Part shown: in pieces, positions 14,886 to 16,055 of the stretch | Numbering within the stretch: position 1 is the first letter of the stretch | How the letters are laid out: each line of letters starts with the position of its first letter | DNA from: Candidatus Parcubacteria bacterium | GTDB taxonomy: Bacteria > Patescibacteriota > Patescibacteriia > JAACEG01 | Direction: 5' to 3' | DNA: 30,348 nt | Assembly: GCA_023135505.1 (NCBI GenBank) | Contig: JAGLTA010000010.1 | Span: forward strand, 1 to 30,348 | The notes under the pieces: model-generated | The model's input: the letters and a program-made list of their open reading frames with translations, nothing else | Database searches by the model: none | Told to the model about the DNA's origin: nothing | Translations under genes and position numbers: made by a program

Positions 14886-15828
14886 TAACCCTATTTTTTC
14901 GCGCCAAATCTTTTATAATTTTTATTTTTACCGATGGAAAAATTCGCTTAATAATTAAGCTGATTTTTTTTGTTTGATGCGGATTAATTTCAATAAGGAT
15001 ATTGATTTTATTTTTAAATTCGTTTTTTGTTTTGAATTCAGATAATTGCAAAAAAAGTTCTCTATAATATTTTAATCCGTCAGTTCCGCCAAGAAGAGCA
15101 GCCTTCGGTTCACGCTGGATGGACTTTTCTTTGCATTCGTTCGCTGTTAAATAGGGTAGATTCGCGATAATTACTAAATTTGAATTTTTAATTTTTGATT
15201 CAGCATTTTTTATTATTGGACTTAATAAATCGCCGTGATAAAATTTTATTATTTTATTAACCTTATGAATTTTTGCGTTTTTGCGCGCAATATATAGAGC
15301 CTTTTTAGAAATATCAGAGCCCAGAAATCGGATTTCAGATTTCAAATTTCGGGTTTCAGATATCGGATATCGGAGGTCGGATATCGGATTTTTAATAAGA
15401 TTTTTTGCTAATGCGATAATAATGCAGCCACTGCCAGTTCCGATATCGGCAATAACATAATTTTTTGATTTCCCCTTTTTTAAAATTCGCAATGTTTCTT
15501 CAATAATTAATTCGGTTTCAGGGCGCGGAATCAGAACATTTTTATTAACAAAAAAATTCAAGCCATAAAATTCCCTATTTTTAATAATATAAGCGATCGG
15601 CTCGTTTTGAATTCGCCTATACGCCATTTTTTTAATTCTGTTTAATTCATTTTTTGACAGTTTATAATCCAAATTCGCGCAGATCCATTCTCTGCTTTTT
15701 TTCAAAACAAACATAACTAAAATCTCAGCGTCCAGCTCCGCGAATTTTATTTTGTCTTTTCTAAATCGCTTAATAACAGAAAACAGAATCTGTTTTACAG
15801 TTGAATTTTTTTCAAAAACTATTGACAT
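14869..15828 (-). CDS. prmC: Release factor glutamine methyltransferase PrmC/HemK with repeat-derived insertion
   Basis: EPIAYI, REFYGL, VLIPRPETE, DIGTGSGCI, ANLPY, EPKAALLGGTDGL motifs. Confidence 0.96.
   Translation of the reverse strand: MSIVFEKNSTVKQILFSVIKRFRKDKIKFAELDAEILVMFVLKKSREWICANLDYKLSKNELNRIKKMAYRRIQNEPIAYIIKNREFYGLNFFVNKNVLIPRPETELIIEETLRILKKGKSKNYVIADIGTGSGCIIIALAKNLIKNPISDLRYPISETRNLKSEIRFLGSDISKKALYIARKNAKIHKVNKIIKFYHGDLLSPIIKNAESKIKNSNLVIIANLPYLTANECKEKSIQREPKAALLGGTDGLKYYRELFLQLSEFKTKNEFKNKINILIEINPHQTKKISLIIKRIFPSVKIKIIKDLARKNRVISMTV
15325..15387. repeat. Nine tandem degenerate heptamers inside prmC (in frame, 21 aa)
   Basis: aaatcgg atttcag atttcaa atttcgg gtttcag atatcgg atatcgg aggtcgg atatcgg; encodes PISDLRYPISETRNLKSEIRF. 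Confidence 0.85.
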
Positions 15829-15849
15829 TTTTTAAAAATTATTTAAAAT
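15822..15849 (+). promoter_or_regulatory. Promoter divergent from prmC, overlapping its start codon
   Basis: TTGACA (15822-15827), 16 nt, TAAAAT (15844-15849); predicted start ~15855 coincides with the base of a 10-bp stem. Confidence 0.6.
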
Positions 15850-15854
15850 AAATA

Positions 15855-16055
15855 TCAGAAGCCCCCGATATCTCGTAGTAAAAAGAGATAGTGGGATTTT
15901 TACCAAAAACTCGCCAGCTGGGCGAACGACCGAAAGGCATAAAGGAGGTGATTTTATGCATCACAGAAAAGGGGCTTCTGGATAGATGCAGAGGGGGCAA
16001 GACATGACATGTTTATGATAAAGCTAAACACTATTGTCTCGCCCCCTTTTTCTTT
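15855..16055 (+). ncRNA. Candidate structured small RNA of unknown family
   Basis: Closing stem CAGAAGCCCC/GGGGCTTCTG (15856-65/15971-80) enclosing several hairpins, then a long hairpin (15992-16047) with U-tract; GC-rich island in AT-rich DNA; only a 9-codon ORF. Confidence 0.6.

Follow-up and report, generated by a model that had tools for sequence, protein, structure and literature searches.

The 30,348-nucleotide window analysed here (contig C2) belongs to a Candidatus Parcubacteria metagenome-assembled genome (MAG, G000) of 0.92 Mb, with 34% G+C and an estimated completeness of 82.5%, recovered from cold-seep metagenomes. The element under study, at 15822-16055, is flanked on the left by prmC, which lies on the minus strand (14869-15828) and encodes the Pfam PrmC_N and methyltransferase domains, and on the right by the RNase P RNA gene rnpB on the plus strand. 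The element had been proposed, from the DNA letters alone, to be a novel standalone small RNA that exposes a full Shine-Dalgarno (SD) sequence in a hairpin loop. We give a probability of about one half to a different reading, namely that the spacer between prmC and rnpB is a hypervariable slot and that the element occupying it is an autonomous, lineage-restricted mini-gene cassette led by an SD, rather than a conserved structured non-coding RNA. All of the features named in the original prediction (promoter, 10-bp stem, inner hairpins TATCTC/GAGATA and TCGCC/GGCGA, 7-bp stem with its loop, alternative pairing, open reading frame (ORF) and terminator) are present where it had placed them. The element reads as follows:

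15822-15849 (+): sigma-70-type promoter, score 11/12; -35 TTGACA at 15822-15827, 16-nt spacer, -10 TAAAAT at 15844-15849
15856-15980 (+): predicted closing stem P1; CAGAAGCCCC (15856-15865) pairs with GGGGCTTCTG (15971-15980) over a perfect 10 bp; in this genome only
15864-15902 (+): predicted extended hairpin P2; 15864-74 with 15885-95, followed by AUUUUUA
15911-15925 (+): predicted hairpin P3, TCGCC/GGCGA with a 5-nt loop; kept in the nearest relative, G002
15937-15959 (+): predicted SD hairpin; 7-bp stem GCATAAA/TTTATGC (15937-43/15953-59) and 9-nt loop GGAGGTGAT; in this genome only
15941-15952 (+): SD site AAAGGAGGTGAT, a 12-nt perfect complement of the 16S rRNA 3' end
15956-15985 (+): micro-ORF; ATG at 15956, 9 codons (MHHRKGASG) and a TAG stop, with the AUG 7 nt after GGAGG
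15957-62/15985-90 (+): alternative pairing TGCATC/GATGCA
15990-16055 (+): long intrinsic terminator; hairpin 15990-16049 (core stem G15993-C16046), then a T-tract

The -35 hexamer overlaps the start codon of prmC on the opposite strand, and transcription is predicted to start at ~15856. The minimum-free-energy fold of the element contains the listed stems and reaches -69.7 kcal/mol, as compared with -46.6 +/- 4.2 kcal/mol for shuffled sequences (z = -5.5; 0/200 shuffles as good). The minus strand folds equally well (z -5.7), so that folding by itself does not assign a strand; the promoter, the SD and the terminator are all on the plus strand. The base of P2 competes with P1. P2 consists of 11 pairs with one A.G mismatch, and the nascent 5' RNA is predicted to fold into it (-12.7 kcal/mol), with the structure that keeps P2 lying only 2.9 kcal/mol above the minimum. 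Together with the AUUUUUA that follows, P2 could act as an early terminator. The 3' strand of P1 falls within codons 6-9 of the micro-ORF, and the terminator hairpin begins 5-6 nt after the stop codon.

No 16S gene is present in this MAG. In the two genomes of the genus with a 16S gene, that gene ends in GGAUCACCUCCUUUCU, hence AAAGGAGGTGAT is a 12-nt perfect complement, and the earlier claim that the loop complements the 16S 3' end is borne out. The anti-SD is intact in the genus, and the site in the element is, judged by its pairing, a true anti-SD complement and a genuine SD. The predicted SD:anti-SD duplex (-20.2 kcal/mol) is far more stable than the SD hairpin (-6.7 kcal/mol), whose loop contains the SD and whose 3' arm contains the AUG.

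The element also lacks the hallmarks of familiar RNAs, in agreement with the original prediction, which had recognised no transfer-messenger RNA (tmRNA), signal recognition particle RNA or riboswitch. Rfam 15, searched in gathering and E-value modes, returns nothing on the plus strand of 15822-16055, even with the cutoff relaxed to E <= 10; the tmRNA gene itself was located on contig C100 (ARAGORN, Rfam). Type I toxins are characterised by a hydrophobic ORF of 20-60 aa and a sequestered SD; here the SD is unpaired in the fold and the ORF consists of 9 hydrophilic codons.

The spacer in related genomes

When 5.8 billion proteins were searched with PrmC, no more than four close relatives emerged, at 76, 71, 69 and 69% identity; at the next match identity drops to 51%. 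The source names of the PrmC homologues put the genome among the Patescibacteria (CPR). The prmC-rnpB spacer was read in all four, namely G002 (a cold-seep MAG of the same genus), L074 (a Logan assembly), G001 and L075, which gives five genomes for comparison. Three of these carry a version of the element, in spacers of 346, 380 and 304 nt, as against 95 and 81 nt in G001 and L075, where it is absent. The PrmC tree is star-like and the five genomes cannot be ordered; for this reason, gains and losses of the element cannot be counted.

G002 matches the window at 93-94% identity over the promoter and the first 80 nt of the RNA, and the remainder is unalignable save for one island, AAAGGAGGTG plus T's, which is the SD site. 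The 5' strand of the closing stem has no 3' partner there, and the 5' CCC...GGG segment forms an 11-bp extended hairpin instead, in which all 11 of 11 positions of P2 are paired; the two substitutions that separate the genomes within the P2 stem keep or improve pairing. The G002 SD is single-stranded and follows a different hairpin. L074 represents a third variant, in which most of the 5' part is different and P3 is missing; its SD, AAGGAGGGG, is partly paired in the fold and is followed 5 nt downstream by an ATG. The terminators of G002 and L074 are 88% identical to one another, including one compensatory pair (GGGTATGG/CCATACCC vs GGGCATGG/CCATGCCC), and differ from that of the window. The closing stem and the hairpin with GGAGGUGAU in its loop are found in neither relative. 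The original prediction had suggested collecting homologs between prmC and rnpB and had named a lack of conserved stems or loop as evidence against it. The locus holds three variants and two empty sites, and both key structures are missing even from the nearest relative, even though the 5' 80 nt are retained there.

What the three carriers do share is a set of expression signals. A -10 box is positioned 16 nt after TTGACA in each of them (TAAAAT, TAAAAT and TAATAT), and the two lineages without the element have no such box (AATATT at 18 nt, and TTTGTT). The three variants contain four SDs, each with a start codon 5-8 nt downstream. The ORFs occupy equivalent places but are unrelated in sequence, with 9 codons in the window, 13 and 5 codons in G002, and 5 codons in L074; the peptides of the relatives (MISAKKLSYSSMR, MRAET and MNYDI) have no codon bias in common. 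The last ORF ends close to the long hairpin in every case, its stop being 5-6 nt from the first base in the window and 0 to -1 nt in G002 and L074. Since only the -10 box, the SD with its start, and the terminator have been kept, neither the peptide nor the displayed loop seems to be the selected feature. The earlier proposal of a standalone RNA fares well here, in that the plus-strand promoter, terminator and SD recur in three lineages and the element is probably a stand-alone transcription unit. From these signals we infer that it is transcribed and translated, and that it has no trans-acting role.

For comparison, prmC itself is 67% identical between the window and G002 at four-fold degenerate sites and 75% at third codon positions. 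The 5' 80 nt are thus more conserved than neutral prmC sites; together with the 88% identity of the terminators of G002 and L074, this suggests that the shell is either constrained or recently exchanged. The pattern is a mosaic, with a 5' module common to the window and G002 and a terminator module common to G002 and L074, from which recombination between shells may be deduced. The absence of the element from two relatives indicates that it is dispensable. We would describe it as an accessory unit whose cargo appears to have shrunk to a micro-ORF (5-13 codons, unrelated among carriers); this cargo may be vestigial or regulatory.

Wider searches yielded little. BLAST of the element against 60 relatives recovers only G002 (positions 1-80), the rest being short matches of low significance, some of them centred on the SD region. 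A covariance model of the conserved 5' domain, run on 151 genomes of the class, finds the window itself and nothing else; its next matches (E ~1e-3) are generic terminators of the hairpin, U-tract, hairpin kind. An exact-pattern scan of GTDB genomes returns G002 only, besides chance matches within coding sequence, and the same scans of two JGI metagenomes return nothing. The sequence upstream of rnpB was inspected in 30 relatives and shows nothing comparable beyond the genus. In G006 it contains AAGGAGG in a stretch that ends in a terminator, with no start codon, at the point where the contig ends.

We also note that in a member of the same family (G005, locus L052) the prmC-rnpB spacer holds an SD-led ORF of ~100 codons, identified by eye, and a terminator of its own. 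This content may be taken as further evidence of a hypervariable slot.

Read depth across the element is flat and single-copy in four metagenomes; the element is accordingly not a repeat. Strain variation in these metagenomes amounts to only two single-nucleotide polymorphisms (SNPs) within the unit, with zero compensatory pairs. One natural SNP, T15987C, occurs in two samples and disrupts the TGCATC/GATGCA pairing. Two metatranscriptome runs contain ~8% of the words sampled from the stretch.

The right-hand neighbour shows several features of its own. Alignment with the relatives places the real start of rnpB at ~16196, downstream of a promoter at 16157-16185 (TTGACA, 17 nt, TATTAT). The Rfam match to rnpB begins only at 16398; its score, 72 bits, is below the gathering score because the gene (16196-16749) carries a ~145-nt palindromic repeat element in helix P3 (16245-16392), another copy of which is found at C79:849-991. 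Over 16245-16392 the summed contig depth in the four cold-seep metagenomes rises to ~670, compared with 8-20 on the flanks, and there are many variant contigs and loose ends at both borders, indicating a repeat element that is mobile or present in multiple copies. In all five genomes, 8-nt tandem units of the GTGTTAAA / GTTTAAAT type directly precede the -35 box of rnpB (16108-16156 in the window). Their copy number varies by strain, two samples having an extra GTGTTATA after 16134, and the array may be regulator-binding or UP-like. The 34 nt at 16157-16190 hold back-to-back promoters, that of rnpB on the plus strand and TTGTTA, 17 nt, TATAAT on the minus strand, and both are kept in all five genomes.

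Shine-Dalgarno use across the genome

The original prediction described a genome in which most genes lack SDs. This is correct for long ORFs, as GGAGG at -20 to -3 precedes only 9/581 ORFs of at least 150 aa (1.5%, vs 0.5% background) and G is depleted upstream of starts. It does not extend to small ORFs. At intergenic GGAGG sites the first ATG lies 5-8 nt downstream in 43/118 cases, a sharp peak over a background of 0.65 per position. The genome has 49 SD+ATG pairs, of which 27 precede ORFs of 26-99 aa (many of these hydrophobic), 11 precede ORFs of at least 100 aa, and 10 precede ORFs of no more than 15 codons. The SD is clearly functional in this genome and is used mainly ahead of small ORFs. 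Two initiation modes coexist, one for SD-less long genes and one for SD-led small ORFs.

Among the 37 SD+ATG units with an ORF below 100 aa that were checked, about half are flanked by a promoter-like site no more than 150 nt away and a terminator beyond the stop, and the unit studied here has the best promoter and terminator scores of those with the smallest ORFs. Given the number of such units, the element is one member of a class. At C79:560-830 (locus L098) a second micro-ORF unit runs from a promoter (TTGACG, 16 nt, TATAAT) through an A-rich leader and the SD AAAAAGGAGGTGAT to an ORF of 12 codons, with hairpins and a terminator behind it. It evolves as the element does: identity to G002 is 92-100% in the promoter, the leader, the SD and the 60 nt that follow the terminator, and the core is unalignable, encoding a different ORF of 17 codons in G002. 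No RNA gene adjoins it.

Three SD-led small ORFs lie directly downstream of rnpB, at 16822-16934, 17423-17564 and 17532-17734 (32, 42 and 63 aa). Both flanks of rnpB thus appear to be slots for SD-led small-ORF units.

The motif GGAGGTGA is enriched in intergenic DNA, with 10/15 sites outside same-strand coding ORFs in a genome that is ~15% intergenic. Several of these sites have no start codon at a working distance (C15:14652, C119:875, C120:10193, C120:2152 and C96:2338). The start-less sites are found 65-106 nt upstream of long ORFs, and several of the encoded N-termini resemble secretion signals by eye (C15, C119, C120). The C96 site is in the loop of a 12-bp terminator hairpin. Two of the start-less sites are just upstream of a TTGACA box, which makes it doubtful that they are STAB-SD mRNA stabilisers. 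Candidate 'orphan SD' small RNAs at C10 and C20 were discarded, as both are C-terminal coding sequence of long ORFs.

The favoured reading and its rivals

If the element is an autonomous mini-gene cassette, RNA polymerase would start at ~15856 and produce an RNA of ~195 nt. The two 5' hairpins would form first, including the extended P2 in the nascent RNA. The SD would then recruit a 30S subunit, the weak SD hairpin being outcompeted by an SD:anti-SD duplex of 13 bp, and the ribosome would read the 9 codons, in this genome thereby opening P1, and release 5-6 nt ahead of the terminator. The main consequence would be felt in cis: translation would be short-lived, the terminator arm could be masked for a time, and the RNA could be shielded from RNase J, which the genome encodes (a 627-aa ORF on C35 with an RNase_J_C domain, E 4.8e-32).

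Several points weigh against this reading. The 5' domain could owe its conservation to the promoter or leader of prmC, on the opposite strand. The structured leader, unusually long at 87 nt, the perfect 10-bp closing stem and the abutment of stop and terminator hint at regulation over a plain cassette. Absence from two relatives fits an accessory unit and fits a lack of function equally well. The comparison set is small, at five genomes, and chance alone is expected to give about five SD+ATG pairs with tiny ORFs genome-wide.

The first alternative is a ribosome-dependent transcription attenuator feeding rnpB, in which a ribosome at the micro-ORF stop masks the 5' arm of the hairpin and read-through into rnpB increases when ribosomes with a free anti-SD are available. 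Such an arrangement is rather unlikely, even though every carrier has the unit upstream of rnpB and co-oriented with it, and the stop codon suggestively abuts the terminator in all three variants despite their different sequences. The gene downstream has its own strong promoter (with a TG motif), which is kept in all five genomes, including the two without the element. MHHRKGASG offers two His codons only and no regulatory codon run. In the folds no antiterminator overlaps the terminator arm; the TGCATC/GATGCA pairing is outside the arm and is broken by T15987C. Moreover, the analogous C79 unit is not beside an RNA gene. Coupled attenuation is nevertheless plausible in this organism, in view of a Phe_leader match elsewhere in the window (E 0.0012).

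That match, at 17057-17175, is below the Rfam threshold (35.9 bits), as is one to Trp_leader there (E 0.03).

Alternatively, the minus strand, or both strands, could be functional, with the element lying inside the prmC 5' leader and the plus-strand RNA acting as its cis-antisense partner; we regard this as unlikely. In this case prmC would be transcribed through the element from the TTGTTA, 17 nt, TATAAT promoter (16190-16162), and the reverse of P3 followed by UUUUU could attenuate it. This promoter is the only one on the minus strand that scores at least 9/12 upstream of prmC, it is kept in all five genomes, and it stands back-to-back with that of rnpB; the prmC leader may accordingly run antisense through the element. 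A functional leader would account for the high conservation of the 80 nt beside prmC. Folding is equally good on the minus strand, and P3 read in that direction is followed by TTTTTGG and has a terminator-like score. P3 is missing from L074, however, the G.U pairs of the extended P2 become A.C mismatches on the minus strand, and the T-tracts, -10 boxes and SD+AUG are all on the plus strand in three variants. A 53-aa minus-strand ORF (15839-16000) was rejected on account of an in-frame stop in G002.

The original prediction envisaged a trans-acting small RNA whose 12-nt SD baits 30S subunits or an SD-binding protein, or else a ribosome-triggered switch. We consider this proposal improbable as a whole, with the switch a possible form of it. 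The perfect 12-nt complementarity and the energies of the competing duplex and hairpin are what a bait would call for, as is the survival of the SD as a conserved island in G002, and both the intergenic enrichment of GGAGGTGA and the existence of SD-like sites with no proper start codon downstream are in keeping with it. In every variant, however, the SD has a start codon and a short ORF behind it at canonical spacing, a geometry shared with ~49 other, mostly small ORFs, which argues for an ordinary ribosome-binding site and not a bait. Neither the closing stem nor the display of the SD in a loop is conserved, the element is missing altogether from two relatives, a single-copy RNA with one site makes a poor sponge, and the 'orphan SD' candidates at C10 and C20 proved to be coding sequence. 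Nor does a protein partner emerge: bS21 was not found in this 82%-complete genome, and a CsrA search gave only a sub-threshold 16.7-bit match inside a 453-aa ORF, an absence that such a genome does not prove. The CsrB/RsmZ-type sponge invoked by analogy is without support, there being a single GGA loop in the element (and the site not being in a loop in G002) and no CsrA gene found.

A broader scheme would make the element a ribosome-status sensor of SD-poor Patescibacteria, in which 30S subunits with a free anti-SD bind the 12-nt SD and translate the micro-ORF, whose stop abuts the terminator and whose reading would here also open P1, and so set read-through into rnpB, antisense interference with the prmC leader, or both. 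There is only a slim chance that this is correct. If it were, tRNA processing or the modification of termination factors (prmC encodes a release-factor methylase) would be coupled to ribosome availability.

Returning to the mini-gene cassette, the single locus carries little weight, being dispensable, restricted to a handful of cold-seep genomes, and unconserved in its most striking structures. Its value is as an example of a pattern, in which long housekeeping genes go without SDs despite an intact anti-SD and textbook SDs are found on fast-turnover small-ORF units. This raises the questions of whether SD-dependent initiation is a separate, possibly regulated channel in ultra-small bacteria, and of how orphan mini-genes arise, shuffle and decay. 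Should the micro-ORF and terminator design be regulatory, it would constitute a new kind of ribosome-sensing element beside rnpB and prmC.

Known systems compared

Like CsrB and RsmZ, the element has a GGA motif in the hairpin loop of a small, terminator-ended RNA, but it has one site where they have many, the CsrA gene was not found and the loop display is unconserved. Leader-peptide attenuators (trpL, pheL, leuL and the pyrBI leader) resemble it in that an intrinsic terminator closely follows a short SD-led ORF, an arrangement in which hairpin formation could depend on where the ribosome stands; the element differs in having neither a regulatory codon run nor an exclusive antiterminator, and the RNA gene downstream has its own promoter.

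The 5' mRNA stabilisers known as STAB-SD, and ribosome blockade of RNase J1, are exemplified by cry3A (reviewed in PMC4113751) and hbs (PMC5737220). Extended 16S complementarity within the RNA and an RNase J gene in the genome are points of similarity, and binding of a 30S subunit or ribosome could likewise stop 5'-3' decay here. A STAB-SD, however, directs no initiation and sits at the 5' end of a stable species, whereas in the element an AUG follows at 7 nt and the SD is 87 nt from the predicted 5' end.

The size of the cargo recalls minigenes, short ORFs (2-8 codons) preceded by an SD, of which the lambda bar minigenes are examples (PMC2490762, PMC8708949). Both combine a strong SD, an AUG, a few codons and a stop, with a peptide that would be irrelevant and any effects arising through engagement of ribosomes and tRNA. 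The element has in addition its own promoter, leader hairpins and terminator, and its sequences are unrelated to those of known minigenes. Peptidyl-tRNA drop-off and toxicity are further points on which the element may differ from minigenes.

Phage morons and the promoter-early stem-loop (PeSL) cassettes of T4-type phages are autonomous units located between conserved genes (PMC3594210; Arbiol et al. 2010, PMC2839356). The element shares with them a strong sigma-70-like promoter and a stem-loop terminator of its own, insertion between conserved genes (here prmC and rnpB), presence, absence or replacement among close relatives, and a conserved regulatory shell around unrelated cargo. It differs in being chromosomal and flanked by housekeeping genes, with no phage genes nearby, and in combining a cargo of only 5-13 codons with an 87-nt structured leader. 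It belongs to no Rfam family, and the reading preferred here is that of an autonomous SD-led mini-gene or minigene cassette in a hypervariable slot.

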